Both the position numbers and the translations under genes were made by a program. Source: a virus (taxonomy: Duplodnaviria; Caudoviricetes). From it: a DNA stretch of 64,000 nt. The first letter of the stretch is position 1; the number at the start of each line of letters is the position of its first letter. The notes under the pieces are model-generated. The model saw nothing but the letters and a program-made list of their open reading frames with translations, was not told the DNA's origin and did not search any database. This document shows, in pieces, positions 1,193-63,134 of this stretch. The stretch is taken from IMG/VR virus record IMGVR_UViG_3300010429_001617. The stretch is one strand, 5' to 3'.

Positions 1193-1558
1193 ATGAAACA
1201 TTTAAAATTATATGAACAATTTGATTTCGAAGACTTGTCAGAAGAGGATCTTTTTGGCCAAAATAAATGGACATTAACCGAGTTTCTAGAACTCGATGGA
1301 ACAGTCACCTATTATATAATTCAAGAATATATAGATGATAACACTGTTGTCCTATATAACGATTTTTATTTTTCCAGATATGTTGATCGTCGTTTTAAAA
1401 AAATCTCCGTTATTGATAAAAATTCTGAAATAAGTGTATATGATGAAAATATGATATATAAAAAAAGAAGAGTTCCAATAAGTTTTTCTTTTGCTTCTGT
1501 GAAATTTGAAGATTTGGCAGATGATGTTAAAAAAAGGTTAGATATTAAAGTGATATGA
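1193..1558 (+). CDS. small protein with capsid-targeting-like leader (MKHLKLYEQ)
   Basis: Leader plus EEDLFG; paralogous N-terminus to next ORF. Confidence 0.6.
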   Translation: MKHLKLYEQFDFEDLSEEDLFGQNKWTLTEFLELDGTVTYYIIQEYIDDNTVVLYNDFYFSRYVDRRFKKISVIDKNSEISVYDENMIYKKRRVPISFSFASVKFEDLADDVKKRLDIKVI

Positions 1559-1941
1559 AACATTTAAAATTATACGAGCAATTTGATTTCGATGATTTGT
1601 CGGACGAAGAACTTTTTGGTAAAGAAATAAAAAGAAATCTCATTAAAGGCGCAGAAGGTTATTATGCCATTGAATGGAGAAATTTAATGTCTCGAGTAAT
1701 CCCTAGGGAGAATGAAAGACTTTATTTATATAAAGATTATGATTGGATTAATGTTAAATATTATAATGATCATATTGTGGATTCACATGAATTCTTTAAT
1801 ATTAATGAATTAAATGATAATGATATTGTAATGATATGTGACAATAAGATGAAAGATATTAGAACGATATGGCATAGAATTAGAAAAAAAGATCTACCTG
1901 AAAATATAAAAAAAGAAATAAATGATTTAAATTTTTTATGA
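1555..1941 (+). CDS. small protein with capsid-targeting-like leader (MKHLKLYEQ)
   Basis: First ~23 aa nearly identical to 1193 ORF; ATGA overlap. Confidence 0.6.
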   Translation: MKHLKLYEQFDFDDLSDEELFGKEIKRNLIKGAEGYYAIEWRNLMSRVIPRENERLYLYKDYDWINVKYYNDHIVDSHEFFNINELNDNDIVMICDNKMKDIRTIWHRIRKKDLPENIKKEINDLNFL

Positions 1942-2354
1942 AACATTTAAAATTATACGAACAATATTCACCTGTTAATTTCTCAAAAGATGGAGTTCTA
2001 ACAATAGTTGGATTTCATGATGACGTTATAGTAGAATTGGATATAGAGATCGCCAACACGCCACAAAAAAGATCAACAGGTCTGATGTTTAGAGAATATT
2101 TACCAAAAAGAAGTGGTATGTTTTTTATATTCGATAGAAGTGAAAAATTATCATTTTGGATGAAGAATACAATAATGCCACTTGATATTATTTTTATAAA
2201 TAGTGAATTTGTTATTGTTGATATATATAAGGGGGCTGAACCATATTCTTTAAAAAGAATAGTCCCATCTGAATTATCAAAATATGTTTTGGAAGTTCCG
2301 GCTGGATTTGTTTTGGATTATGGTATAAAAAAAGGACATAAAATAAAAATTTAG
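1938..2354 (+). CDS. DUF192 family protein with MKHLKLYEQ leader
   Basis: EIANTPQKRSTGLMFR, GMFFIF, SFWMKNT.MPLDIIFI, YVLEVPAG are DUF192 signatures. Confidence 0.85.
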   Translation: MKHLKLYEQYSPVNFSKDGVLTIVGFHDDVIVELDIEIANTPQKRSTGLMFREYLPKRSGMFFIFDRSEKLSFWMKNTIMPLDIIFINSEFVIVDIYKGAEPYSLKRIVPSELSKYVLEVPAGFVLDYGIKKGHKIKI

Positions 2355-2356
2355 AT

Positions 2357-3658
2357 ATGAGAAATTTTGAACGTATTTTTTATGATGCCCCAAATAAATT
2401 TTGTATTAAATTTTCAGATCACAAAACCTATAAAGATTTTTTAGTTTTTTTAGAAGAAAAAGGATTTTCGTGGGCGGCTAATGGAGAAAAGCCAACAGCG
2501 AGAGATTACTATATAGAAGGCAATGAAGAAAGGAATGTTATAGGGGTCGAAAAATTTACTAAACATGTTTGGAATAATTTTTTTGGAGAAATTTTTGATT
2601 CTAGAAAAGCAAGAAAACAAAATTTAGAAGAAGATCCCTGGGATGAGGAAAATTGGGGATTTTTAGATGAATCTAACAATTTTGATAGTTTTAAACATAT
2701 TTTTGATACTACACCAGATGAATTTTGTGTAAAATTTTCAGATCCCATATCTTATAAAAATTTTTTAGCTTTTTTGGAGGATGAAGGATTTTTGTGGGGA
2801 GGTTCCCTAGGCAGACCAACATCACTTAATTATTGGTATGAAGACTGTATTTTTAAATTTGTGGGCGTGGAGAAATCTAAGAAATATGTATGGAACAATG
2901 AGATGGACACAATAGTAACTTTTGATGATAATATAAAAAAGAGGAAACTAAATCTAGAGAACGATCCCTGGGGTGAAGAAGACTGGGGATATGTTGAAGA
3001 AAGAATGATAAATGAGAATAAAGAAGAATATATCATTGGCGATGTAGTCAAGCTTGGTGGAGAAGTAGATTCTTATAAACTAGAAAATATCACTGGAACC
3101 ATACATAGGATAATCGAAAGATGTGGTGGAATACATATTAATTCGGATATTCATGGAAATATAAAAGGATTTTATACTGGATTAGCTTATTTTATAAAAG
3201 AAATAGATTGGTGGGTATCTCCTTACAATATAATCGGACCAAAGACCGATATAAAAAGAAAACATAACTTAGAGGATGATCCTTGGGGTGAAGAGAACTG
3301 GGGGTGGGAAGAAATAAAAGAGTCTGACAATTTTGATAGTTTTGAAAATATTTTTGATAATGCCCCAGATAAATTTAGTATTAGATTTTCAGAAAAGGAG
3401 TCTTATAAAAATTTTTTAGTTTTTTTGGAAAATAAAGGATTTTTCTGGGGAGGCAGCGGTCAATACCCAACAATGCGAAATTATTGGTATGGAATTAATA
3501 GGTACATAGGTGTAGTAAAATCTGAAAGAAAAATATGGGATCAACCAGTTGGTGAGGTTTATGATTACGATAAAACTTTGACCAATAAAAAAAGAAAACA
3601 TAACTTAGAGGACGATCCTTGGGGTGAAGAAGACTGGGGATATTTAGATGAAGATTAG
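2357..3658 (+). CDS. four-module protein, each module ending in DDPWGEExWG
   Basis: Modules 1, 2 and 4 are homologous (FCIKFS..YK.FL.FLE.KGF.W); four tag copies. Confidence 0.75.
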   Translation: MRNFERIFYDAPNKFCIKFSDHKTYKDFLVFLEEKGFSWAANGEKPTARDYYIEGNEERNVIGVEKFTKHVWNNFFGEIFDSRKARKQNLEEDPWDEENWGFLDESNNFDSFKHIFDTTPDEFCVKFSDPISYKNFLAFLEDEGFLWGGSLGRPTSLNYWYEDCIFKFVGVEKSKKYVWNNEMDTIVTFDDNIKKRKLNLENDPWGEEDWGYVEERMINENKEEYIIGDVVKLGGEVDSYKLENITGTIHRIIERCGGIHINSDIHGNIKGFYTGLAYFIKEIDWWVSPYNIIGPKTDIKRKHNLEDDPWGEENWGWEEIKESDNFDSFENIFDNAPDKFSIRFSEKESYKNFLVFLENKGFFWGGSGQYPTMRNYWYGINRYIGVVKSERKIWDQPVGEVYDYDKTLTNKKRKHNLEDDPWGEEDWGYLDED

Positions 3659-4023
3659 CTCATAACCATATAATAATTATAACCTTTTATCGTAAAGTTC
3701 AAATAAAGTATATCCCGATATTCTCCTTCATATAATTTTAAATCCAGCGTATATCCAACTTCATTCAACTCAGGTATATAAGTGCTTATTTGCTCTGTTA
3801 TATTGTTTCTTATTTCCGTATCTGGAACTTTGGTGCTCCATAAATAATATTCTAGATCGCATCCCATGCCAGGATCACCAAATAGTGAACCTTTATTAGA
3901 AAATAAGATCATTTCTAATTTTTGAACCATCACTTCAATTAAATCATTTTCTACAATTTTTTTATCGTTGTATCTCGGGTGTCCTTCATACTTAACATAA
4001 ATATCACTAAAATTTAAAGGCAT
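3655..4023 (-). CDS. gp25-like baseplate wedge subunit
   Basis: ILFSNKGSLFGDPGMGCDLEYYLW...ISTYIPEL matches GPW/gp25 pattern; start moved to ATG 4023, downstream of TAATATATA. Confidence 0.75.
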   Translation of the reverse strand: MPLNFSDIYVKYEGHPRYNDKKIVENDLIEVMVQKLEMILFSNKGSLFGDPGMGCDLEYYLWSTKVPDTEIRNNITEQISTYIPELNEVGYTLDLKLYEGEYRDILYLNFTIKGYNYYMVMS

Positions 4024-4089
4024 TAATTTTGGATTATTATTTTTGAATATATATATTAAAACCTGGCTCACAGAAAAAAAAATATTTTT

Positions 4090-4356
4090 ATGGTAAGCAT
4101 ATCAATAGTAGATTATATAGGAAAGGTTAAAGATGGAGTGGCTATATTATTATCATTAAATATAGATGACAACATATATCAAATGGTTTTTTGGTTTAAT
4201 AAAGAAAGTAGGTATGTCTTAAATGTTGATGATGATCTGTTGAAATTACTAGGTGTTGAAAAAATATATGATTACGAACATCTTAATGATATATTGGAAA
4301 AAATATTTAAAATTTTACCGCCAGTTAAAGATATTTTTAATAAATTTGGAGTTTAA
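4090..4356 (+). CDS. hypothetical protein
   Basis: 88-aa ORF, ATG start, fills intergenic gap. Confidence 0.6.
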   Translation: MVSISIVDYIGKVKDGVAILLSLNIDDNIYQMVFWFNKESRYVLNVDDDLLKLLGVEKIYDYEHLNDILEKIFKILPPVKDIFNKFGV

Positions 4357-4367
4357 AGAAATTTGTG

Positions 4368-5000
4368 ATGGAAAATAGAGTAAAATATCCTAGAACAAAA
4401 CATGTTCCATTTAGTTTGGGAGCTGGAAAGGATGATCTTTTTCATAAAGATTTGAAATTCTTTGATGGAAGAGAAATCGCCTTGAGTGAGAAGTTAGACG
4501 GCGAAAATACAACTCTTTACAGAGATCATATACATGCTCGATCATTAGATAGTGTTGATCATCCATCACGCCACTGGGTCAAGGGATTATGGGGAAGTAT
4601 GAAATATGAGATACCTGATGGTTGGAGAATATGTGGTGAAAATTTATATGCTACCCACAGCATCCATTATACAGATCTGCCGTCATATTTTATGGTTCTT
4701 TCCATATGGGATGAAAACAATGTTTGTTTATCATTAGATGACACATTGACAATATGTGATTATTTAAAATTGGAACACGTTCCCATACTTTGGCGTGGAA
4801 TATTTAATGAAGAATTTATTAAAAATTTTAAATTAGATTTAACAATCAACGAGGGATATGTTATTCGGGTAACAGATTCTTTTTCTTATGATGATTTTGA
4901 TACATCTGTTGCGAAATTTGTGAGAAAAGGTCATGTCACCACAGATGATCATTGGATGTATAAGAAAGTAGTTCCAAATGAGCTAAAACCTAAAAATTGA
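4368..5000 (+). CDS. RNA ligase family protein (Rnl2-like nucleotidyltransferase)
   Basis: KYPRT.H.P, motif I EKLDGEN, ICGENLYA.HSI.Y, EGYVIR, AKFVR..HV. Confidence 0.85.
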   Translation: MENRVKYPRTKHVPFSLGAGKDDLFHKDLKFFDGREIALSEKLDGENTTLYRDHIHARSLDSVDHPSRHWVKGLWGSMKYEIPDGWRICGENLYATHSIHYTDLPSYFMVLSIWDENNVCLSLDDTLTICDYLKLEHVPILWRGIFNEEFIKNFKLDLTINEGYVIRVTDSFSYDDFDTSVAKFVRKGHVTTDDHWMYKKVVPNELKPKN

Positions 5001-5056: not shown

Positions 5057-5404
5057 ATGAAGCATTTAAAATTATACGAAAACCAAGAAAAATTTCTTTC
5101 CAAAGAGTTTTCTATTTATGATCTTAATGAAAAATATCGGCGTGAGGTTATAATAATGTTAGTAACAAATAATACAAAAAACAAATATGTTGAATTTTAC
5201 ACTTATCCAGAATACGAGAAAAAAGAAATATTTGTTAAAGAAGTTTATGAAAAAAGAATTTATAATAAAACTACAAATAAAATTGAATGGGAGTTCTATT
5301 TCATAGATGACAAAGGAGTTGAATATCGTGTTTCAACATCAAGAAGAAAAATCAAATGTTATGCTATCAGAAATGAGGATGATCCTTGGCTTGAAGATTC
5401 TTAA
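5057..5404 (+). CDS. small protein with MKHLKLYE leader and C-terminal DDPWLEDS tag
   Basis: Both peptide motifs present; TAATATATA at 5042. Confidence 0.65.
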   Translation: MKHLKLYENQEKFLSKEFSIYDLNEKYRREVIIMLVTNNTKNKYVEFYTYPEYEKKEIFVKEVYEKRIYNKTTNKIEWEFYFIDDKGVEYRVSTSRRKIKCYAIRNEDDPWLEDS

Positions 5405-6827: not shown

Positions 6828-6983
6828 ATGATAAATAAGAATAAAATAACAATAACTCTAGATAAAGATATTATCGAAACACTCAACAAATTATCAGATA
6901 AACAAAGTATTAATAAAAGTAAATTCATCAACAAAATAATAAAAGAATACTTGGATAGAAATGATATTGACAGAAAAAATTAA
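6828..6983 (+). CDS. ribbon-helix-helix (CopG-like) protein, not in ORF track
   Basis: MINKNKITITLDKDIIETLNKLSDKQSINKSKFINKIIKEYL, 51 aa, classic RHH pattern; overlaps start of endonuclease. Confidence 0.7.
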   Translation: MINKNKITITLDKDIIETLNKLSDKQSINKSKFINKIIKEYLDRNDIDRKN

Positions 6984-8604
6984 AATAAATATATCATACA
7001 CCAATTTAAAACACTTTTCAGAGAAATTTAAAGGCATAAAAATAGGTGATCAGATAGAGATAAGTCCGGATTATTTACCTGAAACAAGCCATAAAAAAAT
7101 TTTAACGAAATGCGATGTTTGTGGAAATGAAAAAGAATTGCCATATAGAGATTATATCAAAAGTTTGAAAAACGGAAACTATTTTACATGTAATCGTTGT
7201 AAGAACAACAAAACTAAAAATACTTTAAAAGAAAAGTATGGGAACGAAAATTATTATAATAAAGAAAAATATAAAAAAACATGTTTAGAGAAATATGGAG
7301 TCGAAAATGTTTTTCAAAATGAAAAAATAAAACAAAAAATTAAAGATAAGAATAAAGAGAAATATGGATTTGAACATTCTTCTAAATCGGACATAGTTAA
7401 AGATAAATCAAAAGAAACCAACTTAAAAAAATATGGAAAAACACATCATCTAAAAAATAAAGATATATTAAATAAACAATTTAGAACAAATAAAGAGAAA
7501 TATGGATTTGAACATTCATCACAAAATGATGAAGTTAAGGAAAAAATATCAAATGGTGTAAAAAATTTCTATATTAGAAACGCCAATAATTATTATGATA
7601 ATTTAATTGGAATAAGTGGCGACACAATAGAATTATATTGTCCTTTATGTGGAAATAGATTCAAAACTTATAGATATTTTTATCACAACAGGAAGGCAAT
7701 AAAATCGGTTCAATGTACATTATGCAATCCAATAAATTCAACAGAGTCATCATACGAAAAGGAATTAAAAACTTTCATATCAACAAATTACAATGATGAA
7801 ATATTTTTTAATTATAAAAAAATATCTAATAGTGAATTCGATATTTTTTTACCAAAATTAAAATTGGGATTCGAATTTAATGGTTTATATTGGCACTCAG
7901 AAACATATAAAGATAATAATTATCATTTACATAAAACAGAATTAGCTGAAAAATATGGAATAAGATTGATACATGTATATGAGGATAATTGGATATATAA
8001 ACAGGAGATAGTGAAGTCCAGAATATTAAATCTATTAAACAAAACACCTAATAAAATTTATGCTAGGAAATGTGAGATAAAAGAAGTATCTAATAATAAA
8101 TTAGTTAGAGATTTTCTTGAAAAAAATCATGTCCAAGGTTTTGTTGGTTCTAATATAAAAATAGGGCTTTTTTATTCAGGAGAACTTGTTTCTTTAATGA
8201 CGTTTGGAAATTTGAGAAGAACAATGGGACAAAAAAGTGAAAAAGGATATTACGAAATGTTCAGATTTTGCAATAAATTGAACACCGGTGTTATTGGAGG
8301 AGCTTCAAGATTGTTCAAATTTTTTGTTAAAAATTATGATCCGAAAGAAGTGATCAGTTATGCTGACAGATCTTGGAGTCAAGGAGAACTCTATAAAAAT
8401 CTTGGTTTTAAACTAGTTGGAAAAACAAAACCAAATTATTATTATTTTAAAAACAAAAAAAGATTGTCTAGATTTAATTTCAGAAAAGATCAATTAGTAC
8501 GAGAGGGATTTGATTCAAATAAATCTGAGCATGAAATAATGATTGATAGGGGCATATATAGAATATATGATTCTGGAAATCTAAAATTTATCTGGACATT
8601 TTAA
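6961..8604 (+). CDS. putative homing endonuclease (KYG repeats, Zn fingers, PD-(D/E)XK/Vsr-like core, conserved C-terminal domain)
   Basis: Repeated EKYG.E; CxxC pairs; EFDIFLPKLKLGFEFNGLYWH; IYARKC...YADRSWS. Confidence 0.75.
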   Translation: MILTEKIKINISYTNLKHFSEKFKGIKIGDQIEISPDYLPETSHKKILTKCDVCGNEKELPYRDYIKSLKNGNYFTCNRCKNNKTKNTLKEKYGNENYYNKEKYKKTCLEKYGVENVFQNEKIKQKIKDKNKEKYGFEHSSKSDIVKDKSKETNLKKYGKTHHLKNKDILNKQFRTNKEKYGFEHSSQNDEVKEKISNGVKNFYIRNANNYYDNLIGISGDTIELYCPLCGNRFKTYRYFYHNRKAIKSVQCTLCNPINSTESSYEKELKTFISTNYNDEIFFNYKKISNSEFDIFLPKLKLGFEFNGLYWHSETYKDNNYHLHKTELAEKYGIRLIHVYEDNWIYKQEIVKSRILNLLNKTPNKIYARKCEIKEVSNNKLVRDFLEKNHVQGFVGSNIKIGLFYSGELVSLMTFGNLRRTMGQKSEKGYYEMFRFCNKLNTGVIGGASRLFKFFVKNYDPKEVISYADRSWSQGELYKNLGFKLVGKTKPNYYYFKNKKRLSRFNFRKDQLVREGFDSNKSEHEIMIDRGIYRIYDSGNLKFIWTF

Positions 8605-9358
8605 ACCAAGATGTTGTAGATTGTTCCTTTATATATGTCTTAACTTCATCAACCATTTCTTTACCTTGTGAAATAATATCACTGGCATTGTATGTGAAAT
8701 TGCCCGGCAATTGGAAATTGAATCTACCTATTAACTCTCCCATTCTAGAACGACAAGTACCAATCACAAATCTTTTAAACATTTCAAAATCAAATAGTTC
8801 TTCCTCTTGGACTCTAACCCAACATTCTAACACAAGATCTGTTGGTTCAGAACTATTTGAAATGCTACCCAAGAAATGTAATCTTTTGTTTATGTGATTA
8901 TAACTAAACATTACTGTATTTTTTGTCAATTTATTGATTTCATCCGCGAAATAACTAATTGTTGAGCGATATAACGCCAAATCTCCAGCTGTTGTGACGA
9001 ACGATGTTAAAAAAGGTTGATTTGTAACACCAAGATTTATAGAAAGATGTGGAGCCTGAATACCCAATCTAAACATCGATGAGTCCTCTACTCGAATTAT
9101 TTTTGTAATGTTTTCAACTTCCTCTGGTAAAATTAAATATTGAAATCGATTATATAAATCCCTCATTGCCCAGTCATAGACCATATAATAATAAGCTTTC
9201 TGGACAGCGAATTGATAATTTTTATAGAACCATTCCAGTACAATTTCTTTTATCATACGATGAACTTCTTTATCTGGTAAAACCTTTGGTAAAGCACCTG
9301 AAAAAGTTAGATCTTGTTGTACTATATCTATTAATTGTTCAATTGTGATCGATGCCAT
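8588..9358 (-). CDS. gp13-like neck / head-completion protein
   Basis: C-terminal FNFQLPGNFTYNASDIISQG resembles the gp13 LPGGvtlng motif; late promoter at 9381. Confidence 0.6.
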   Translation of the reverse strand: MASITIEQLIDIVQQDLTFSGALPKVLPDKEVHRMIKEIVLEWFYKNYQFAVQKAYYYMVYDWAMRDLYNRFQYLILPEEVENITKIIRVEDSSMFRLGIQAPHLSINLGVTNQPFLTSFVTTAGDLALYRSTISYFADEINKLTKNTVMFSYNHINKRLHFLGSISNSSEPTDLVLECWVRVQEEELFDFEMFKRFVIGTCRSRMGELIGRFNFQLPGNFTYNASDIISQGKEMVDEVKTYIKEQSTTSWFKMSR

Positions 9359-9466: not shown

Positions 9467-11278
9467 ATGAACAATTTAAAAAATATAATAAATGAAAAAA
9501 AGAATAATATAGGAGCGTTATGTATTTATATAAAAAAAAGAGAATATTTAGAAGAACAATTAGAAAAATATTTAATCGATAACAAAATAGAAATAGAATT
9601 GACTCTATCTCAGAAAATATGGTGTTATGATAATAGTGAAACAAATATTCTTTGTGGCTGTGGTAAAATGAAAAAATGGAAAGATTTTAAATCTGGATGG
9701 CGCATTACGTGTGGAAACAAAAATTGTATCAACAATAAAAGAAAAGAAACTAATATCAGTGTTTATGGATGCGATAATCCATTAAAGAATGAAAAAATTA
9801 GAGAAAAAGTGGAGCTGACAAACATAAAGAAATATGGGGTGTCAGTGGCATCAAAAAATCAATTTGTTAAAGAAAAAATATCAAAAGTTCTACAAAATAG
9901 AGACAACATTCATAAAGAAAAAACCAAAAAAAAGAAAATAGAAAGTTGGAAAAATAAAAATGAAGATGATAAGAAAATCATTAGACTAAAAAGAAAAGAT
10001 AAAATGGATCGAAAAACATTAGATGAAAAAAAATTGATAGATTCTAAAAGAAAAAAAACTTGTTTAAATAGATATGGTTCTGAATATGCTATAAGCTCAA
10101 AAGAGATTAGAAATAAAATCGAAAAAATTTTTATGAAAAAATATGGGGGGAAATCCCCCTTTTCCAATGAAGATATTGTAAAGAAATCCATTGATAGTTA
10201 CAAAAACGGACGAATAGAAGAAATTAAAAATAAATTGAATGATTTTAATGTTGAATATGTCTCACATATTAATAAAAACAGTGAGTCGTCAAACATCGAA
10301 TATGTTCTAAAATGTAAAAGAACAAACAATTTTTTTAAAATGAGTTACACAAACTTAAGAGTTAGATTAATATCTAAATCAGAAATTTCTCCATTTTTCA
10401 GAGAAAAAAAAGGCACTTCAGATGAAGAAGAAAGATTATTTAATTTTATAAAAGAAATATATGTCGGTGAAATTATAAAAAACACCAAAAATATAATATC
10501 GCCCTTAGAACTAGACATTTATCTCCCAGAACTAAAACTAGCTTTTGAGTTCAACGGTCTTTTTTGGCATAATGAACTCAACAAGTCCAACAACTATCAT
10601 CTTGAGAAAACCGAGTTAGCTGAAAAACAAGGAATAAAGCTTGTCCACATCTACGAGGACGACTGGATGTTCAAACAGGAAATTGTCAAATCAAGAATAT
10701 TAAATTTGTTAAACAAGACTCCGAACAAGATCTACGCTAGAAAATGTGAGATAAAAGAAGTGTTTGATAATAAACTGGTTAGAGAATTTCTTGAGAACAA
10801 TCATATTCAAGGTTTTGTGGGATCAAAGATCAAAATAGGTCTTTTTTATTCTGGTGAACTAGTTTCCTTGATGACCTTTGGAAGCTTGAGAAGAGCAATG
10901 GGACAAAACTCACACGATGGATCCTATGAAATGCTCAGGTTTTGTAACAAACTGAACACCAATGTTATTGGAGGAGCTTCGAGACTGTTCAAATTCTTTG
11001 TTAAAAATTTTGAGCCAAAAGAAGTAACTAGTTATGCTGATCGTAGCTGGAGTCAAGGAGATTTATATAAAAATCTTGGTTTTGAACTTATCAGAAAAAC
11101 CGAGCCAAATTATTATTATGTTATTGACGGCGTGAGGAGGCACAGGTTTGGTTTTAGAAAAGATCATCTCGTTAAAGAAGGATTTGATCCTTTAAAGACC
11201 GAACACGAAATAATGCTCGATAGAAAAATTTATAGAATTTATGACTCAGGGAATTTAAAGTTTATAAAAAATTTATAA
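9467..11278 (+). CDS. putative homing endonuclease, paralog of 6961..8604
   Basis: C-terminal ~280 aa highly similar (ELDIYLPELKLAFEFNGLFWH...YDSGNLKF); different N-terminal region. Confidence 0.75.
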   Translation: MNNLKNIINEKKNNIGALCIYIKKREYLEEQLEKYLIDNKIEIELTLSQKIWCYDNSETNILCGCGKMKKWKDFKSGWRITCGNKNCINNKRKETNISVYGCDNPLKNEKIREKVELTNIKKYGVSVASKNQFVKEKISKVLQNRDNIHKEKTKKKKIESWKNKNEDDKKIIRLKRKDKMDRKTLDEKKLIDSKRKKTCLNRYGSEYAISSKEIRNKIEKIFMKKYGGKSPFSNEDIVKKSIDSYKNGRIEEIKNKLNDFNVEYVSHINKNSESSNIEYVLKCKRTNNFFKMSYTNLRVRLISKSEISPFFREKKGTSDEEERLFNFIKEIYVGEIIKNTKNIISPLELDIYLPELKLAFEFNGLFWHNELNKSNNYHLEKTELAEKQGIKLVHIYEDDWMFKQEIVKSRILNLLNKTPNKIYARKCEIKEVFDNKLVREFLENNHIQGFVGSKIKIGLFYSGELVSLMTFGSLRRAMGQNSHDGSYEMLRFCNKLNTNVIGGASRLFKFFVKNFEPKEVTSYADRSWSQGDLYKNLGFELIRKTEPNYYYVIDGVRRHRFGFRKDHLVKEGFDPLKTEHEIMLDRKIYRIYDSGNLKFIKNL

Positions 11279-45063: not shown

Positions 45064-45309
45064 TTATTTATGATAATTGCTAATAAATAAATCAAATAAT
45101 TCTGAAGTTGATAGCGCTGGGGAACCATCAAAAAGCTGTCTATTGTATGTTTGCCACGCGTCATATCTTATATTTTTTTGCCATCTATTATCTCCTAACC
45201 ATTTAGCGAAGTCAATAGATATCGATTTAGTTTTATCGTCAATCTCGGATAAATTTGAATCTGATTGTTCGTTAAATCTTTTAAGTCTTTTGTTTGTCAT
45301 AACGCTCAT
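45064..45309 (-). CDS. small protein with leader ...RLKRFNE|Q
   Basis: Late promoter at 45321; leader-like N-terminus. Confidence 0.55.
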   Translation of the reverse strand: MSVMTNKRLKRFNEQSDSNLSEIDDKTKSISIDFAKWLGDNRWQKNIRYDAWQTYNRQLFDGSPALSTSELFDLFISNYHK

Positions 45310-49383: not shown

Positions 49384-50313
49384 ATGTTAAGCGAAGTATC
49401 GATTGAAATTAGAAGAACTGACGATATAGAAAATATTTATAATTATCTTATCGATCAGGGATATGGACTTGATAAAAAAAGAATGTTAAGTTATGGTGTG
49501 AGATATATATGGATACATTCTGTCTCGAATATAACTTATAGTAAAAGCGGCACCAAATGGAATAATTATGAAATAATGAATTTTGATGAATTTAAAAATA
49601 GAATCGATATTCAAAAAAATAGAAGAAAAAAACAAAATGTAGAAGAAGATCCTTGGAATGAAGAGGACTGGGGTTACGTCGAGGAAAAGAAAAACAATTA
49701 TAATTTTCAAATAGGCGAAAAGGTCAGATTAAAAAGAAGCGTTAAACATGAAATATATGGAAGACCTATTTTGGCTCTATCAAATGCTAAAGGTGAGATA
49801 GGCGTAATAGAAGAAATATTCGATGAAGATAAATATGCCTATAAAGTGAAGTGGAAAAATGGTTTTGTTGACCGGTATTCAAAAGATGAAATAGTTCCAG
49901 CCTTAAAAACAACGAGATTATTAAAATTATCCGACGATCCTTGGGGTGAAGAAAACTGGGGATTTGTTAAAGAAAATGTTAGTGATTTTGAATTTTTGAA
50001 AGACTATAACATATTATATTCCACATATGATGAGATGTTTGATATAGCTAAGAAGTTGGTGGAAATCGGATTTGATGTATATGGATATAGTTGTGAAAGA
50101 GATAATAAATTGGAACATGAATGGTATAAATGGAATTGTTTTGTATGGTCACCAAACAAGTATTTTGTTCAATCGAGAATAAATCGTGATTTTAAAAGAA
50201 TGGATTATGATGATTTTATAAGAATCACTGGAGGGGCAATAAGAAAAAGAAAATTAAAATTAGAAGATGATCCTTGGGGTGAAGAAAACTGGGGATATAT
50301 AGAAGATGATTAG
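49384..50313 (+). CDS. three-module protein, each module ending in DPW.EE.WG
   Basis: Three tag copies; middle module SH3-like (FQIGEKVRL). Confidence 0.7.
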   Translation: MLSEVSIEIRRTDDIENIYNYLIDQGYGLDKKRMLSYGVRYIWIHSVSNITYSKSGTKWNNYEIMNFDEFKNRIDIQKNRRKKQNVEEDPWNEEDWGYVEEKKNNYNFQIGEKVRLKRSVKHEIYGRPILALSNAKGEIGVIEEIFDEDKYAYKVKWKNGFVDRYSKDEIVPALKTTRLLKLSDDPWGEENWGFVKENVSDFEFLKDYNILYSTYDEMFDIAKKLVEIGFDVYGYSCERDNKLEHEWYKWNCFVWSPNKYFVQSRINRDFKRMDYDDFIRITGGAIRKRKLKLEDDPWGEENWGYIEDD

Positions 50314-53980: not shown

Positions 53981-54733
53981 ATGAAATTCTTGAAAATATA
54001 TGAGCAATTTGAACTGGATGATGATCCTTGGGGTGAAGACTCACCAAGAAAATATACATTTGGAGAGTGGTTTAAGGAAAATTATGGAAATAAAGATCCA
54101 CTGACAATAAAGACAATTGATTGCTATAATAATTCTCTGACCAGTCTCGATGAAATAGAAAACTTGATAAATCTTAGGGAGTTATCTTGTCATCATAATT
54201 CTCTCACCAGTCTCGATGGAATAGAGAACCTGATAAATCTTGAAGAGTTATATTGTTCTAATAATTCTCTCACCAGACTCGATGGAATAGAGAACTTAAT
54301 AAATCTTAAAGTGTTATATTGTTATAATAATTCTCTCACCAGTCTCGATGAAATAGAAAACTTGATAAATCTTAAAGCGTTATCTTGTCATCATAATTCT
54401 CTCACCAGTCTCGATGGAATAGAGAACCTGATAAATCTTGAAGAGTTATATTGTTCTAATAATTCTCTCACCAGACTCGATGGAATAGAGAACTTAATAA
54501 ATCTTAAAGCGTTATCTTGTTCTGATAATTCTCTTGTCAGCCTTGCGGGAATAGAGAACTTAATAAATCTTAAAGTGTTATATTGTTATAATAATTCTCT
54601 CACCAGTCTCGAGGGAATAGAAAACTTAATAAATCTTAAAGTGTTATATTGTCATAATAATTCTTTCTCTGATGAATATAAAGTTCATTTAAAAGATCAT
54701 TGTAAAAAAAGAAATATAAAATTGTACATATGA
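53981..54733 (+). CDS. leucine-rich repeat (internalin-type, 22-aa) protein with leader and DDPWGED tag
   Basis: MKFLKIYEQFELDDDPWGEDS followed by ~8 L.C.NNSLTSLDGIENLINL repeats. Confidence 0.9.
   Translation: MKFLKIYEQFELDDDPWGEDSPRKYTFGEWFKENYGNKDPLTIKTIDCYNNSLTSLDEIENLINLRELSCHHNSLTSLDGIENLINLEELYCSNNSLTRLDGIENLINLKVLYCYNNSLTSLDEIENLINLKALSCHHNSLTSLDGIENLINLEELYCSNNSLTRLDGIENLINLKALSCSDNSLVSLAGIENLINLKVLYCYNNSLTSLEGIENLINLKVLYCHNNSFSDEYKVHLKDHCKKRNIKLYI
54122..54665 (+). repeat. 66-bp tandem coding repeats with a 198-bp higher-order duplication
   Basis: aattctctcaccagtctcgatg.aataga.aac.tgataaatctt recurs; unit order ABC-ABC. Confidence 0.85.
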
Positions 54734-55509
54734 ATCACCTGAAACTATATGAACAATTTAGATATGGTAGAGAACCAGATCTTCGTAGAATGACAAATAT
54801 TGTTAGATGTGTCAAAAGAAATTATGAGCCATATTTTACACTAAACAGATATTATGACGTTAAAATATGGGGAAATCCACAAAGGGCAATAGAAGAATTT
54901 CATATAAATGATTATATTCCAGTTGAATGCGTTTCAAAAATCAGGATAAAATCAAATAGAAGTGATTCGCTGGAATTAGATTTATCTAAAAAACAAGATT
55001 ATAATTTCTTTTTCGATTACTTTGAGTTAGCTGATGGAAAAAAGATGAAAAGAAAACAAAATTTGGAAGATGACCCTTGGAGCGAAGAAAATTGGGGATA
55101 TGAGGAGATAAAAGAAAATTCACAAAATGGTGTGATATCATATAATACCACAAGACATATGAATGATAATGAATTATTATCATTATTAAAGAAAAAAATT
55201 ATTGGAAGAACCATAGATTTTCACGCTTTATGTGAAACTGGTAGAGGAAAAAATATAATACACTATAGAATTAAAGATATAAGAGATTTTTATGTTAAAG
55301 ATGTTTATATTGGTGACGGCGATTTTATTTTCATAGAAGGCGTCGGCAAATATGATGACGATAAGAAATATGAAGCCAGTTATATTTTGAGTAAGACGGC
55401 AGATATATTTTATTCACTAACGAGCGAAGAAATAGAAAAAAGAAGGCAATTAACAGATTTACATAAAGAAGAAGATCCTTGGGGTGAAGAAAATTGGGAA
55501 ATCAATTAA
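54730..55509 (+). CDS. two-module protein with MNHLKLYEQ leader and two DPW tags
   Basis: EDDPWSEENWGYEEIKE|N internal; EEDPWGEENWEIN terminal. Confidence 0.7.
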   Translation: MNHLKLYEQFRYGREPDLRRMTNIVRCVKRNYEPYFTLNRYYDVKIWGNPQRAIEEFHINDYIPVECVSKIRIKSNRSDSLELDLSKKQDYNFFFDYFELADGKKMKRKQNLEDDPWSEENWGYEEIKENSQNGVISYNTTRHMNDNELLSLLKKKIIGRTIDFHALCETGRGKNIIHYRIKDIRDFYVKDVYIGDGDFIFIEGVGKYDDDKKYEASYILSKTADIFYSLTSEEIEKRRQLTDLHKEEDPWGEENWEIN

Positions 55510-55530
55510 AAAAAATTAAAAAAAAAAAGA

Positions 55531-55917
55531 ATGAAAACAAAATTTGAAAATTTCTTGAACGAGAGTATCTTTGTCGAAAAAGATGATAAAATATTGAGAG
55601 AAATTATATTTATTATCAAAAAATATAATCTGATACCAACATATGAAAGTCAGACAAGATATTATAGAAAGTTTGAATATCTCATAAAGTTGAAAGATAA
55701 GACATTATCAGTTATTTGTGAAAGAGGTGGTTTGGATGACGAGCCTTTTAATGAATATATAATATCTCTAAATAATGAAAAATTAAAGTGCTCTAAATTT
55801 CTGATGTCAAAGATGTGGAGGCTATCAAAACATTTATATGAAAATCAGGATGGTGAAAAAACTAAAAAAGAGATTGATCAAATTGATCAAAAAGAATTGA
55901 TCAAAAGAATAAAATGA
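55531..55917 (+). CDS. small protein with leader MKTKFENFLNE|S
   Basis: Leader motif. Confidence 0.6.
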   Translation: MKTKFENFLNESIFVEKDDKILREIIFIIKKYNLIPTYESQTRYYRKFEYLIKLKDKTLSVICERGGLDDEPFNEYIISLNNEKLKCSKFLMSKMWRLSKHLYENQDGEKTKKEIDQIDQKELIKRIK

Positions 55918-56927
55918 TTATTGATTTTATAACATATATTAACGAACAAATTGAGGATGATAGAAAATACTACATCTATACATTATCGGATCCGATTGAT
56001 GGTGAAGTAAAATATGTTGGCAAGACAAAGGATTTAAAGGATAGGATGTGGAGACATATGGAGCCATCAAATTTAAAAAATGCTTGGACATCTAAAACAA
56101 AATGGATTTTATGGCTTAAAAAACAGGGACTAAAACCAATAATGGATATTTTAGATGAAGGAGATGCCAATAATATAAATGATTTGGAAAGATATTGGAT
56201 ATCTCAAATAAAAACGTGGGGGTATAGATTAAAGAATGACACAAGTGGTGGGCAAGGCGCAGATTATTGGAAAGGAAAAAAATTGTCAAACGAACATAAA
56301 TTGAAAGTGAAAATGAACAATCCTTTGAGAAAAGATATTTGTGAATATGAAATAGGAACAGATAAATTATTGGCTGAATATATATCTGTTCGTGAAGCTA
56401 GTAAAAAAACTGGACATACTGAGTATGCGATCATAAGTAGTTGTAAAGGATTATCAACGCCGGATAAATTTGGTGTCTATTGGAGATATAAAGATAATTA
56501 TTTTCCATATGAAGCTAGAGATTTGAAACCAAGTGAGGAAACTATTCAAAAAATAAAATTAAAACAACATAGAAATAATATTTGTCAGTATGAAATTGGA
56601 ACAGATAGATTATTATCGACATATGAATCGAGTTATGATGCCGAAAGAATAACTGGAATAAATAGATCCCACATAATGAAATGCTGTAGAGGAATAAAAA
56701 ATTATAACTCTGTTGGTGGATATTACTGGAGATTTGAAGATAATTATTTTCCATATGAACCACCAGCAAATAGACCCATAAAAATAGAACAATATGATAA
56801 AAATGGAAATTTAATTAAAATATATAACTCTACATACGAGTTGAGAAAAGAATTAAAAATAGATTTTAGAGCCATAATTAAAAATAATTATGATTATCTT
56901 GGATATGATTGGAAAATTAAAAAATAA
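55914..56927 (+). CDS. GIY-YIG homing endonuclease with NUMOD1-like repeats
   Basis: YIYTL...KYVGKT...R...H, LERYWI, GGQG; repeated ICQY...Y.S..EA...TG...I..CC.G. Confidence 0.85.
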   Translation: MIIDFITYINEQIEDDRKYYIYTLSDPIDGEVKYVGKTKDLKDRMWRHMEPSNLKNAWTSKTKWILWLKKQGLKPIMDILDEGDANNINDLERYWISQIKTWGYRLKNDTSGGQGADYWKGKKLSNEHKLKVKMNNPLRKDICEYEIGTDKLLAEYISVREASKKTGHTEYAIISSCKGLSTPDKFGVYWRYKDNYFPYEARDLKPSEETIQKIKLKQHRNNICQYEIGTDRLLSTYESSYDAERITGINRSHIMKCCRGIKNYNSVGGYYWRFEDNYFPYEPPANRPIKIEQYDKNGNLIKIYNSTYELRKELKIDFRAIIKNNYDYLGYDWKIKK

Positions 56928-56939
56928 ATAAATAAAAAC

Positions 56940-58541
56940 ATGAAAAAAATGAATTTAATAAATTTAACGGAATTTGATAAATTTGTCGAAATGATGAACG
57001 AAAGCGTAAGTGGTTCAGTACGAAGCCGTTTTGCCCCTTCGCCTACAGGCGCACTTCACCTTGGGGGGGTGCGAACCGCGTTATATAATTATCTTTTCGC
57101 AAAAAAACATAATGGTGTGTTTTATTTAAGAATTGAGGATACTGATCAGGTTCGTTTTGTGCCAGGCGCCGAAGAATATATTAGAAAGTCTTTAGAGTGG
57201 TGTGGAATTTCACCGGATGAATCTCCTTGGCAGGGTGGGCCTTACGGTCCTTATCGTCAATCAGAAAGATATGACATATATCCAAAATATGCTAAAGAAT
57301 TAGTGGATAAGGGTAAAGCCTATTATTGTTTTGACACACCAGATGATATAGAAAATATGAAATCTAAACTCTTAGAACAGGGAGTTGCTTCACCTCAATA
57401 TGATGCTAACACCAGAATGATGATGAAAAATTCTCTAACTCTTTCAGCAGATGAAGTTCAACATTTATTGGATTCAAAAGCTCCTTTTGTCATTAGAATA
57501 AAGTTTCCAGAAGACACACAAATAGTTGTTAATGATATAATTAGAGGAACTGTTGTTGCCAACACAAACACATTGGATGATAAAGTTTTATTCAAATCAG
57601 ACGGACTACCTACTTATCACTTGGCTAATGTTGTTGATGATCATTTAATGAAAACATCGCACGTTATACGTGGAGAAGAGTGGTTGCCAAGTGCTCCGCT
57701 TCATTTCTTTTTATATGAGGCATTCGGTTGGGATACACCAGAATTTGCTCATCTTTCATTAATATTGAAACCAAGTGGGGCTGGAAAATTGAGTAAAAGA
57801 GATGGGGACGCTTTAGGATTTCCAGTTTTTCCTTTAAAGTGGACGGATCCTAAAAATCCAGATGCCACATCAAAAGGATATAAAGACAGCGGTTATTTGC
57901 CTGAAGCTTTCATAAATATGTTGGCTTTTCTTGGTTGGAATCCAGGAACAGAGCAAGAAGTTATGACAATGGACGAGCTCATACAATCTTTTTCATTAGA
58001 AAGATGTGGTAAAGCTGGAGCTCGTTTTAATATAGAAAAAACGAAATGGTATAACGGACAATATATTAGAAAAATGTCTGATGAAGAGGTTTTTGATGAA
58101 TTAAAAAAATCACTGGATGAAAGAGGAATAGATTTACCAGATGGAACTATAAAGAAAATGATAGAAATGAATAAGGGTAAAGTTAATTTTGTTTCAGATA
58201 TATATGAAGCTTCTTTATATTTATTTGAAAAACCAGAAACATATGATAAGAAAACTGTCGAGAAGAAATGGACAGAAAAAAGCCCTGAGGTAATTTCTAA
58301 TTTGAGAGAAGTTTTAGAAGGTGTCCACGATTGGTCAGGTGAAAATATTCAAAGAGCATTTGAAAAATATGTTAATGAAAATCCTGATTTGAATTTTGGT
58401 ATGGTTGCTCCGGCATTGAGACTTGTTTTAACTGGTATGGGTAATGGTCCATCACTATTTGATATTATGGAAATCATCGGTAAAGAAGAAACGTTAAATA
58501 GAATGACAAATTATAATATACAAGTTAAAAAGAAAAAATAG
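56940..58541 (+). CDS. gltX: glutamate--tRNA ligase with extra N-terminal leader
   Basis: RFAPSPTG.LHLGG, LRIEDTD, PYRQSER, VIRGEEW, KLSKRDGD..GFPVFPL (Bacteroidota-type), anticodon-binding domain present. Confidence 0.95.
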   Translation: MKKMNLINLTEFDKFVEMMNESVSGSVRSRFAPSPTGALHLGGVRTALYNYLFAKKHNGVFYLRIEDTDQVRFVPGAEEYIRKSLEWCGISPDESPWQGGPYGPYRQSERYDIYPKYAKELVDKGKAYYCFDTPDDIENMKSKLLEQGVASPQYDANTRMMMKNSLTLSADEVQHLLDSKAPFVIRIKFPEDTQIVVNDIIRGTVVANTNTLDDKVLFKSDGLPTYHLANVVDDHLMKTSHVIRGEEWLPSAPLHFFLYEAFGWDTPEFAHLSLILKPSGAGKLSKRDGDALGFPVFPLKWTDPKNPDATSKGYKDSGYLPEAFINMLAFLGWNPGTEQEVMTMDELIQSFSLERCGKAGARFNIEKTKWYNGQYIRKMSDEEVFDELKKSLDERGIDLPDGTIKKMIEMNKGKVNFVSDIYEASLYLFEKPETYDKKTVEKKWTEKSPEVISNLREVLEGVHDWSGENIQRAFEKYVNENPDLNFGMVAPALRLVLTGMGNGPSLFDIMEIIGKEETLNRMTNYNIQVKKKK

Positions 58542-58542
58542 T

Positions 58543-58673
58543 ATGAAGTATATAAAATTATACGAGCAAAAGATTTTGAAAATGATTCCTGGGGAGAGGA
58601 TACACCTCGTGAAAATAGTTTAATAGACATACTTAGAATGATATTTTATGGCATTCATATTTTTTTAATTTAA
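58543..58673 (+). pseudogene. frameshifted remnant of a leader+tag gene
   Basis: MKYIKLYEQ, then after a 1-nt shift DFENDSWGEDTPRE, paralleling the LRR N-terminus. Confidence 0.55.
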
Positions 58674-58808
58674 GGATTCAATTTTCATTTTCTCATCTAC
58701 TACACCATAATCAACTGGCTGATCAATATCAACCAAATTGTTGGCAATCAACCAACTAAAAAACATGTCAGAAATAATCTGTTCGATTGGTTTGTCAAAA
58801 TTTTCCAT
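58665..58808 (-). CDS. possible 47-aa protein
   Basis: MENFDKPIEQIISDMFFSWLIANN..., A-rich leader. Confidence 0.4.
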   Translation of the reverse strand: MENFDKPIEQIISDMFFSWLIANNLVDIDQPVDYGVVDEKMKIESLN

Positions 58809-60329: not shown

Positions 60330-61115
60330 ATGATCGATAAGTTTATACAATTCAATGAGTCAAGGAGATCTAAAAAAAGAAGATTTCATGGAATAGAAAG
60401 AAATTATAATAGATATAATAGAAGTTTAGAGGAATCTTCACCAGAAAATGGCATGAAACTTGATGTTTCTCCACGATTTAAGGCTGTTGTAGAAAAGATG
60501 GTCGGAATTGGTGGCCTGATAGCTAAAAATCTTTTAGAAGAAATAAATAAAAAAGAAAGACTGTTTAAAATATCTTATATAGATATATCTAGAAATCTAG
60601 ATATGTTGACATATTTACCTTTATCTGAAAAAAACTCTGGAACCGATCCTTATAAAAATCCAAAAAGAATTGGTTCTAAAATATATAAGGTCATAAGAAT
60701 GCTTTTCGAAAATAGTGTCACAAAAGAAGAAATTCAAAAATTTGTATCTGTTTTTAAAAAGGTTTGTAGTTCCGATCCAGAACGACCTTCTCCAAAACCA
60801 AAAACTGAAGTTTCAGGTGTCAAAGAAGACAAAAAAACAAATAATGAGATAATATTCAAATTAATTGAAGACACTATAGAAAATAAAATTAAGTGGGAGA
60901 CAGTACAGAACACAGATAATCTAGAAAGTTATAGGACCATTGTTAATATAACAAATAATAAAAAATTAGAAATTGATGTGTTTATAATGAAAAAAAATAT
61001 TGATCTCAGTAGTTTATCTATATTTTATATAATTAATAAAAATAATAATTTTATAAAAAGTATAAAATTTTCTGAAATAAAAGAATTTGAAGATTTGATT
61101 GAATTAATTAGATAA
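60330..61115 (+). CDS. hypothetical protein with leader MIDKFIQFNE|S
   Basis: Late promoter at 60298; paralog at 61452. Confidence 0.6.
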   Translation: MIDKFIQFNESRRSKKRRFHGIERNYNRYNRSLEESSPENGMKLDVSPRFKAVVEKMVGIGGLIAKNLLEEINKKERLFKISYIDISRNLDMLTYLPLSEKNSGTDPYKNPKRIGSKIYKVIRMLFENSVTKEEIQKFVSVFKKVCSSDPERPSPKPKTEVSGVKEDKKTNNEIIFKLIEDTIENKIKWETVQNTDNLESYRTIVNITNNKKLEIDVFIMKKNIDLSSLSIFYIINKNNNFIKSIKFSEIKEFEDLIELIR

Positions 61116-62289: not shown

Positions 62290-62508
62290 ATGGAAAAAAC
62301 CTTTGAAAGATTTCTGAATATTTTTAAGGAAAAATCTTGTGACGACGATGATATCGCTGAAAAAATATATAAACACATTCAGGAAAATGATATTTTTGTG
62401 AATAAAGATATTCGTGGTTATCATTTTCATATTTTGTTAAATGAGACGGAAAATGATAGGGAAGATCCGTTTAATGAAGACTCAGCAAATTCTATTGAGA
62501 TTTCGTAG
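62290..62508 (+). CDS. small protein or fragment with MEKTFERFL leader and EDPFNEDS tag
   Basis: Both motifs; may be truncated. Confidence 0.45.
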   Translation: MEKTFERFLNIFKEKSCDDDDIAEKIYKHIQENDIFVNKDIRGYHFHILLNETENDREDPFNEDSANSIEIS

Positions 62509-62546
62509 ACTCTCATTTTATTCAATTAAACTACAGGACCTCTATG

Positions 62547-62618
62547 TGCGACTGGATGGATTCGAACCACCGACGAATTGCATGTAACACAATCACTCTA
62601 CCCCTGAGCTACAATCGC
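62547..62618 (-). tRNA. tRNA-Val(TAC)
   Basis: GCGATTG/CAGTCGC acceptor; ATTGT-GTTACAT-GCAAT anticodon arm; GGTGG-TTCGAAT-CCATC T-arm; no encoded CCA. Confidence 0.85.
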
Positions 62619-62629
62619 TTATATATGTG

Positions 62630-62700
62630 TGTTCCCGAATGGAATCGAACCATTGCCATTTGAATGTGACTCAAATATTCTCCCTTTAAACCACAGGAAC
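62630..62700 (-). tRNA. tRNA-Val(CAC)
   Basis: GTTCCTG/CGGGAAC acceptor; TTTGA-GTCACAT-TCAAA anticodon arm; AATGG-TTCGATT-CCATT T-arm; no encoded CCA. Confidence 0.8.
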
Positions 62701-62759
62701 AAAAAATGACAAAAAATGATTAAAAAGTATTAATATATAGAATAAAAATTATTTTTATT

Positions 62760-63134
62760 ATGAAAACATATTTAGAATTTTTAAATGAACAAGCCGCTCC
62801 AGCACCCGCTCCAGCACCCGCTCCAGCACCCGCTCCAGCACCCGCTCCAGCACCCGCTCCAGCACCCGCTCCAGCACCCGATCCAGCACCGCCCGCTCCA
62901 GCCACACAAATCCCAAAAAGAACAACTTCTTATGGTGGGAATTTAGCGAGAGCTAATGATGATAAGGTTCATGAAATAATATATAAATTAACACCTCAAA
63001 CAAAAACTGATCTTCAAAATGTTTATAAGAAAGTATTAGACGAAATCCATAAGACATTTAAAGATGATCCATCTATGACTACAAGAGATATTGCAACTGC
63101 TGTAGGAAGTATAATGTATAATCAGCAGGGATAA
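62760..63134 (+). CDS. putative internal head protein with MKTYLEFLNE|Q leader and (AP)14 linker
   Basis: Leader closely matches the T4 IPII/IPIII capsid-targeting sequence MKTYQEFIAE; late promoter at 62731. Confidence 0.7.
   Translation: MKTYLEFLNEQAAPAPAPAPAPAPAPAPAPAPAPAPAPAPDPAPPAPATQIPKRTTSYGGNLARANDDKVHEIIYKLTPQTKTDLQNVYKKVLDEIHKTFKDDPSMTTRDIATAVGSIMYNQQG
62796..62891 (+). repeat. 12-bp tandem repeat gctccagcaccc x7 plus one degenerate copy
   Basis: Read directly; encodes APAP. Confidence 0.95.

Follow-up and report, generated by a model that had tools for sequence, protein, structure and literature searches.

The closest described counterpart of the element studied here is the capsid-targeting sequence (CTS) of bacteriophage T4, which is carried by the internal proteins IPI-III and by Alt and is cut by the protease gp21. 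Within this peptide, MKTYQEFIAE, residues 4 and 7 serve targeting and residues 8 and 10 serve processing (PMC9026906). The polymorphic ip loci of T-even phages have been interpreted as an arms-race arsenal (PMC3012670; PMC9026906). In phiKZ, 201phi2-1 and SPN3US, 8-19 head proteins are cut after Glu (PMC5694885; PMC9026906), and about 50 head proteins are reported for giant phages of the SPN3US type (PMC7411985). Here we analyze a 64,000-nucleotide stretch of viral DNA (IMG/VR record IMGVR_UViG_3300010429_001617; Duplodnaviria, Caudoviricetes), called the window below, in which 82 genes were counted. Many of its proteins begin with a short leader that ends in Glu, and these leaders are probably a T4-type capsid-targeting, Glu-cleaved tag in a greatly expanded form. 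The window suggests that giant phages of this kind may ship dozens of unrelated proteins, a tRNA synthetase among them, in the virion.

Judged by its proteins, the window belongs to a huge phage of Bacteroidota, a relative of the 735-kb "Mahaphage" LR756501 (a record of 735,411 bp, designated 'uncultured phage'). A 901-residue and a 641-residue protein of the window have 67-68% identity to LR756501/LR756503. Its structural proteins match T4-like baseplate and neck families (phrog_219, phrog_211), and the G+C content of the DNA is 27-32%. Al-Shayeb et al. gave 735 kb as the largest phage genome, in the Mahaphage clade with Bacteroidetes as predicted hosts; they mentioned phage glutamyl-tRNA synthetase (GluRS) genes but not the N-terminal extension described below (PMC7162821). 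We found no description in the literature of a common short leader in Mahaphage or Lak phages, or in any huge phage. One of the window proteins was located on a contig of 168 kb. For comparison we used LR756501 in full, 400 kb of LR756504 and Tenacibaculum phage PTm1, a relative in culture; T4 served as the control.

Results

Two classes of N-terminal leaders in the window

Solid leaders are present on 15 of the 82 genes (18%), and a frameshifted remnant of one more gene was found. The leaders span 8-13 residues, with that of GluRS reaching about 22, and fall into two classes. Class A (six genes) reads M-K/N-H/F-L-K-L/I-Y-E and is followed by Q or N. Class B (nine genes, including a short variant at 45309) reads aromatic-x-x-aromatic-(I/L)-(x)-N-E and is followed by S, Q or E. 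The genes are listed here, with a hyphen between the final Glu and the next residue; TAATATATA is a promoter-like motif.

1193-1558, plus strand: class A (MKHLKLYE-Q), 121 residues, no known domain; heads a TAATATATA unit
1555-1941, plus strand: class A, 128 residues; only the first 22 residues are common with the 1193 gene
1938-2354, plus strand: class A with a DUF192 domain (residues 35-138); in cellular homologues a signal peptide stands at the place of the leader
5057-5404, plus strand: class A (MKHLKLYE-N), 115 residues; TAATATATA ends 6 nucleotides upstream
11273-13000, minus strand: class B (MLKFKDYLNE-S), 575 residues
13037-14488, minus strand: class B (MKIKFVDFILNE, then E) with a DHH/DHHA1 phosphoesterase of predicted RecJ/NrnA/GdpP-like fold
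18748-19728, minus strand: class B (MLINFKQFLINE, then Q), 326 residues, no known domain
45064-45309, minus strand: class B, short variant (...RLKRFNE-Q), 81 residues
53981-54733, plus strand: class A (MKFLKIYE-Q), then a DDPWGED tag, then leucine-rich repeats; opens a unit of five genes, all of them with leaders
54730-55509, plus strand: class A (MNHLKLYE-Q), 259 residues; DPWGEENW tag at the C-terminus
55531-55917, plus strand: class B (MKTKFENFLNE-S), 128 residues, no known domain
55914-56927, plus strand: class B (MIIDFITYINE-Q) with GIY-YIG (18-104) and NUMOD1 homing-endonuclease domains
56940-58541, plus strand: GluRS with an extension of about 22 residues ending EFDKFVEMMNE-S
58543-58700, plus strand: frameshifted remnant of a gene with a class A leader and a DSWGED tag
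60330-61115, plus strand: class B (MIDKFIQFNE-S), 261 residues; ...YKKFNE-A in the orthologue
62760-63134, plus strand: class B (MKTYLEFLNE-Q), 7 of 10 residues identical to the T4 CTS; a Pro-Ala linker follows directly

An earlier sequence-only reading had counted about 18 leader genes. Every start codon and peptide that it gave is present, and the domains it had recognized in the cargo (GluRS, DHH, GIY-YIG, DUF192 and leucine-rich repeats) are confirmed by domain matches. Its count shrinks to 15: the gene at 58543 is the remnant, and its four weaker cases (16667, 19798, 46215 and 51156) were not counted, as they contain the F-x-x-F part and lack a hydrophobic-x-Glu end in register. A further candidate at 61153 (MEKFSNKYIE-Q) was discarded on account of its orthologue, which has no Glu at that place. 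The remnant has its leader in frame 0 and ...DSWGEDTPRE in frame +2, directly 3' of the GluRS stop, which is evidence for turnover of leader genes. A PHROGs search with ten leader proteins gave nothing informative, the sole match being a weak one to DHH phosphoesterase (E=0.0011) for the DHH protein, an assignment that Pfam had already given. Beside these genes, the 433-residue protein at 2357-3658 begins with the leader-like MRNFERIFYD-A, with Asp in place of the terminal Glu; Asp at position 10 of the T4 CTS permits targeting and blocks processing (PMC9026906).

The leader pattern exceeds chance in the window and in relatives

The leader motif is 50-fold enriched at N-termini. The strict class B pattern occurs at 9 of 82 N-termini and in 1 of 629 internal windows of 25 residues. 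As a control, residues were permuted within each N-terminal position, which preserves the AT-rich composition of gene starts. Under this shuffle the window holds 4 cases of aromatic-x-x-aromatic-h-N-E (h, hydrophobic) vs 0.05 expected (z=17.6), 8 of the broader class B pattern vs 0.6 expected, and 5 of class A vs 0.29 expected. The bodies of 19 proteins, minus their first 25 residues, gave no mutual BLASTP match at E<0.01, and the leader codons vary synonymously (AAT/AAC, GAA/GAG, TTA/TTG/CTG and four Ser codons). These results argue that the constraint acts on the peptide. The leaders contain no hydrophobic stretch and do not conform to a Sec or lipoprotein signal peptide, in which a basic N-region precedes a hydrophobic core of at least about 10 residues; true signal peptides of the window, for example at 16806 and 25353-26285, look different.

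LR756501 repeats the pattern on a larger scale. Class B leaders occur on 61 of its 1015 genes vs 0.6% of internal windows, aromatic-x-x-aromatic-h-N-E is found 35 times vs 0.54 expected by the position-specific shuffle (z=47), and the short class 15 times vs 2.1 expected. In 400 kb of LR756504 there are 21 leaders, MKYLKLYE-N among them. By these counts the leader marks about 6-7% of LR756501 genes, or of the proteome of the subclade. The genome-wide spread claimed in the earlier reading thus holds in these two relatives. T4, run through the same pipeline as a positive control, returned two MKTYQEFIAE genes among 4 matches in 267 open reading frames vs 1.2 expected; the two are taken to be IPII and IPIII, whose propeptide is identical according to the literature. 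PTm1 (30% G+C) showed no leader excess in the same shuffle. It has a fused protease-scaffold, no leader excess and none of the tags described below, so it is a poor test bed for leaders.

The logo of 62 LR756501 leaders shows Y or F at -6, F or Y at -3, I, L, F or V at -2, Glu at 0, and then A, N, E, G or S; the Glu is usually residue 10-12. In this logo and in the nine class B leaders of the window, the four conserved positions coincide with T4 CTS positions 4, 7, 8 and 10. Class A retains only L(-2) and E(0) of the targeting and processing positions of T4. Most leader proteins are orphans: roughly 5 of 57 have a Pfam domain (PPK2, methyltransferase, collagen repeat, DHH), and none of these is an obvious replication enzyme.

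The leader is an addition with a Glu boundary

Alignment of leader proteins with their homologues indicates that in the DHH and GluRS families the terminal Glu of the leader coincides exactly with the start of homologues that are cellular or lack a leader. For the DHH protein, 112 of 173 metagenomic homologues could be analyzed. In 92 of the 112 a Glu stands immediately before the conserved body start (S/A)APR(I/L)P; this Glu is followed by Ser 52 times, by Ala 41 times and by Gly 5 times (98 in total), and six homologues are leaderless, beginning with Met and the SAPRIP body. The Glu boundary is preserved down to 34% identity. The AlphaFold 2 model of the protein has a mean predicted local distance difference test score (pLDDT) of 90.9. 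In this model confidence is mostly low over residues 1-14 (<50 at 1-4 and 9-14) and reaches pLDDT >=95 in the body, beyond about residue 20.

GluRS gives a similar picture. The alignment of cellular structures begins at query residue 26-28, and at least 45 metagenomic clusters have a pre-sequence of 18-33 residues ending (L/M)(N/K)E-SVSGSVR before RFAPSPTG. One such pre-sequence reads MKKTYLEFINE. Flavobacterial GluRS has the N-terminus MSKQVRV before RFAPSPTG, where the metagenomic clusters have Glu-SVSGSVR, so a cut after Glu would give an N-terminus of native length. LR756501 retains the GluRS leader, and so does LR756504, a much more distant phage. In LR756501 (129681-135227) the GluRS orthologue lies within a run of small leader- and tag-bearing genes. 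GluRS thus stands among leader genes with different neighbors in the window and in LR756501, that is, it associates with this gene class in both.

In the DUF192 protein the leader occupies the place of the signal peptide of cellular homologues. More generally, leaders are retained in orthologues while the bodies diverge, some beyond alignment: the LR756501 orthologue of the 11273-13000 protein has kept the leader MLRYFDYIKE-S though its first 285 or so residues cannot be aligned. Cellular homologues carrying the same N-terminus would have spoken against an acquired leader; they do not carry it.

A promoter-like motif precedes leader genes and structural genes

There are 24 copies of TAATATATA in the window vs 5.0 expected (maximum 12 in 100 shuffles), and almost all lie 3-26 nucleotides 5' of a start codon. 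The copies that head leader units are these.

1174-1182, plus strand: TAATATATA promoter-like motif, ahead of the 1193 gene
5042, 14513 (minus strand), 19754 (minus strand), 45321 (minus strand), 53967, 60298 and 62731: further copies heading leader units

That leader genes or operons follow this motif, as noted before for most of them, applies to all: 15 of 15 leader genes vs 27 of 67 others are in TAATATATA-headed transcription units (Fisher p=1.4e-5). In the five-gene unit at 53981-58541 the leader is on 5 of 5 genes. TAATATATA also precedes window structural genes (the 901-residue, neck-like and 1589-residue proteins) and, in LR756501, the protease-scaffold/major-capsid operon. Given the genes that it precedes, it is probably a phage-specific, late promoter. 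The leader motif is rarer outside TAATATATA units, which answers in part the objection that it might be equally common in early or cytoplasmic genes; the answer is partial, as it presupposes the late timing. The 1589-residue protein had no useful phage match in structural and family searches.

The scaffold of relatives is built of leader-like repeats

The head module, including the prohead protease, was not found within the 64-kb window. LR756501 has, in this order, a portal-sized gene of 608 codons (unannotated), an 807-residue protease-scaffold (73913-76336) and a gp23-like capsid gene (PF07068, 82.9 bits). At the position matching the 608-codon gene the PTm1 annotation gives a portal, and it also gives a fused protease-scaffold. 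In 753 phage records, gp21 'prohead core scaffold and protease' genes match the first 200 or so residues of the 807-residue protein; searching the PDB with the sequence of the protease domain returned nothing.

This protein tops the LR756501 proteome for NE[SAQ] sites (0.74 vs 0.064 per 100 residues) and for aromatic-x-x-aromatic-h-x-E, with 14 copies, 12 of them in a 14-residue tandem repeat of approximately I-D-Y-S-E-Y-I-A-E-N-L-D-K-S. The repeat core Y-S-E-Y-I-A-E is nearly that of the T4 CTS, Y-Q-E-F-I-A-E. LR756504 has the same fused arrangement, with 11 copies of the leader pattern, and PTm1 a fusion with a different scaffold. The capsid proteins, too, contain a site at about residue 65-70 (M-N-E-N at about 68 in LR756501, I-H-E-N in LR756504), which is not directly alignable to the T4 cut site as the PDB alignment spans only the C-terminal half. 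In the T4 control, L-T-E-A stands at residue 65 of gp23 and L-R-E-S at residue 10 of gp24, and gp22 is rich in (L/I)-A-E sites. The gp23 precursor has 521 residues vs 456 in the mature PDB chain, which implies a loss of 65 residues.

Two side observations in LR756501 concern the same proteins. A second, free-standing gp21-like paralogue of 178 residues (11314-11850) lies far from the head genes and ends DPYGEENWSE. Two tiny proteins (730457-730711 and 230334-230558) contain the post-cleavage N-arm motif of the capsid protein, N-G-M-G-x-(V/I)-x-A-P, which in one of them is preceded by a class B leader and a Gly linker; from their sequences the two proteins could be fragments of the capsid N-arm or mimic it.

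A second portable motif and other genes of the window

A tag, DDPWGEE(N/D)WG, recurs in window proteins at 2357-3658, 49384-50313, 54730-55509 (C-terminus), 23829-24440 and 53981-54733 (just after the leader), with variants at 45853-46215 and 62290-62508. Two of these proteins contain it three times.

2357-3658, plus strand: 433-residue multi-module protein in the unit of three class A genes; three DDPW(G/D)EE(N/D)WG tags, two of them followed by h-x-E-S
49384-50313, plus strand: 309-residue three-module protein with three DDPW(G/N)EE(N/D)WG tags; lies after TAATATATA

In LR756501, D-P-(W/Y)-G-E-E-x-W, in the form DPYGEExW, has 106 copies in 91 proteins: 39 at C-termini, 46 between modules and 21 directly behind an N-terminal leader. 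The tag is encoded by synonymously varying codons and tends to occur together with N-terminal h-x-E leaders (odds ratio 3.2, p=1e-6). It was not found in the 400 kb of LR756504 or in PTm1. The tag may be a second, C-terminal loading or retention signal.

Genes without a leader include an RNA ligase (4365-5000), a collagen-repeat protein (20452-21171), an adenylosuccinate-synthetase-like protein (22672-23805), a radical-SAM protein (24442-25275) and, judged from its N-terminal sequence only, a probable GDP-mannose dehydratase (38079-39089). Two large HNH/homing-endonuclease paralogues (phrog_3339, DUF7487) at 6961-8604 and 9467-11278 are in TAATATATA-headed units, with a neck-like gene (8588-9358) between them.

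Discussion

The leaders are probably a T4-type capsid-targeting tag, cleaved after Glu and greatly expanded in number; we infer that the products bind the scaffold, are cleaved, enter the capsid and are ejected, and that the promoter is late. The sequence-only reading, which had taken the leaders for a portable CTS, is supported in that the three in-silico tests it proposed (enrichment at N-termini, co-occurrence with TAATATATA, and addition of the leader to GluRS, DUF192 and DHH proteins) came out as predicted. Relatives lend further support, since they encode a gp21-family protease, their scaffold repeats the leader motif in tandem, and h-(N/A)-E sites like those of the leaders occur in scaffold and capsid propeptide. 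In this model, transcription would start from the phage-specific, probably late, TAATATATA promoter, and the product would begin with a helix of 8-13 residues with aromatic residues at -6 and -3, Ile or Leu at -2 and Glu at 0, or with the short form K-L-Y/F-E. Patterned like the 14-residue scaffold repeat (Y-S-E-Y-I-A-E), the leader would join the scaffold core during prohead formation. The gp21-type protease fused to the scaffold would cut after the Glu, as it would in the scaffold repeats and in the capsid propeptide. The mature protein would then remain in the head and enter the host together with the DNA.

A more specific proposal is offered tentatively. Mahaphage-type phages might pre-load a starter proteome of at least 50 proteins (GluRS, a RecJ/NrnA-like phosphoesterase, polyphosphate kinase and orphan effectors), the label of which mimics one 14-residue scaffold repeat, co-assembles with the scaffold and is released by the fused protease. 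Such mimicry, if true, would also explain how the CTS of T4 works. The match between leader and scaffold repeat offers a concrete mechanism for CTS targeting, of which we found no description in the literature examined, even for T4.

Several observations weigh against a role in the capsid. Leader proteins have a median isoelectric point of 5.9 vs 6.1 for the rest of the proteome and are not more basic, unlike T4 internal proteins; the expectation of basic cargo, as in T4, was rejected by this comparison. The LR756501 homologue of the GIY-YIG protein at 55914 is leaderless and starts directly at the catalytic domain. Capsid loading of this GIY-YIG/NUMOD1 nuclease is one possibility; in-frame insertion behind a pre-existing leader is another. 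We know of no precedent for a packaged tRNA synthetase or homing endonuclease. With the head module and protease outside the window, the link to the protease comes from relatives at no more than 67% identity, and in LR756501 the protease scores 24.1 bits against Pfam S77, under the cut-off of 27 (LR756504, 24.7 bits; PTm1, 45.7 bits). The P2 residue is mostly Asn in leaders and Ala in scaffold repeats, and a single specificity is assumed for both; a comparison of whether P2 covaries between scaffold sites and leaders was uninformative, as Asn is used in LR756501 and LR756504 alike. The late timing of TAATATATA is deduced solely from the genes downstream.

These points lend some weight to another reading, in which the leader is a removable or docking tag for a target other than the capsid (a cytoplasmic assembly site, a phage hub protein or a second gp21-like paralogue) and the proteins act in the cell. 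The 178-residue gp21-like protein of LR756501, away from the head genes, could be such a partner, and housekeeping-type cargo (GluRS, PPK2, methyltransferase), the absence of a basic bias and the dispersal of leader genes over many loci all fit. We nevertheless regard this as unlikely. The motif agrees position for position with the residues of the T4 CTS that experiments have assigned to targeting and processing, it matches the repeat unit of the scaffold itself, and leader, head and tail genes have a promoter in common. It is considerably less probable still that the common 5' ends are recombination cassettes for gene shuffling and encode a functionless peptide. Class A leaders are near-identical on six window genes and one pseudogene, and in related IMG/VR contigs leader genes occupy variable slots among conserved structural genes, both of which a cassette would explain. 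Yet the peptide is kept despite synonymous codon differences, the Glu boundary persists across the DHH family at low identity, and it is the pattern, not the sequence, that is conserved across LR756501 and LR756504.

Two further explanations strike us as barely credible. Radical-SAM proteins are encoded in the window and in LR756501, which would allow the leader to be a recognition sequence for a modifying enzyme of this kind, as in ribosomally synthesized and post-translationally modified peptides. However, only 7 of 62 LR756501 leader genes lie within 8 kb of nine radical-SAM genes vs 13.6 expected at random, a proximity test on which a radical-SAM-linked tag was rejected, and the radical-SAM gene of the window (24442-25275) adjoins no leader cluster. 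The motif might otherwise be a by-product of AT-rich, unstructured 5' coding sequence in a phage of 29% G+C, or of an overlapping nucleic-acid signal: leader codons are very AT-rich, and the first 10 residues show a general, roughly twofold excess of aromatic-x-x-aromatic. A composition artefact was rejected by the position-specific shuffle, which preserves this bias and still leaves the excess in LR756501 and in the window. Synonymous codons, including the GC-richer AAC and GAG, leaderless homologues, and the lack of an excess in PTm1 at 30% G+C also stand against it.

Should the leaders indeed be capsid-targeting tags, the consequences would reach beyond this window. Little is known of how phages with genomes of 500-735 kb take over cells. 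With about 6-7% of genes delivered by the virion, much of their 'dark' gene content would be injected effectors recognizable by a simple sequence rule. A tRNA synthetase carried in the virion would be cargo of a novel type and could secure translation ahead of phage gene expression. The leaders could also be put to use for delivering proteins with phages of Bacteroidota, a purpose that the T4 CTS already serves in E. coli.

Comparison with known systems

The T4 CTS and the leaders are alike in their length of about 10 residues at the extreme N-terminus and in the aromatic residues at -6 and -3, the hydrophobic residue at -2, the Glu at the (here putative) cut and the small residue next to it. 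Both are portable among unrelated proteins with hypervariable, mostly orphan bodies. A gp21-family protease, and h-x-E sites in the scaffold and the capsid propeptide, occur in T4 and in the relatives of the window phage. They differ in scale, with 3-4 of about 270 genes in T4, about 75 of 1015 in LR756501 and 15 of 82 in the window. They differ also in P2 (Asn or Lys here, Ala in T4), in the second, shorter leader class found here (K-L-Y/F-E), in the cargo, which here is not basic and includes recognizable enzymes (GluRS, DHH phosphoesterase, PPK2, methyltransferase), and in the fusion of protease and scaffold into one protein. The T4 system has an experimental basis; this one is known from its genes. 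The T-even ip loci likewise encode diverse proteins with only a conserved CTS in common, but these are few small basic proteins at 1-2 loci, whereas leader genes occupy dozens of loci, often variable slots between conserved structural genes, spread over more than 600 kb of genome.

Encapsulin cargo-loading peptides offer another parallel: a short terminal peptide sends unrelated enzymes into an HK97-fold shell. They are C-terminal, uncleaved and shell-binding, and so are a nearer analogy to the DP(W/Y)GEExW tag than to the leader. In phiKZ, 201phi2-1 and SPN3US a gp21-related protease also cuts after Glu, and propeptides are thought to target proteins to the prohead. Their motif, however, is A/S/G-x-E, and their propeptides are mostly longer than 100 residues and protein-specific, whereas the leaders are short and shared, with a hydrophobic P3; no repeat-built scaffold has been identified in those phages. 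The earlier claim of far more cargo than in T4 is true, but the scale is not unprecedented in view of the roughly 50 head proteins of giant phages such as SPN3US (PMC7411985). The unprecedented part is a short, portable T4-type tag on so many proteins.

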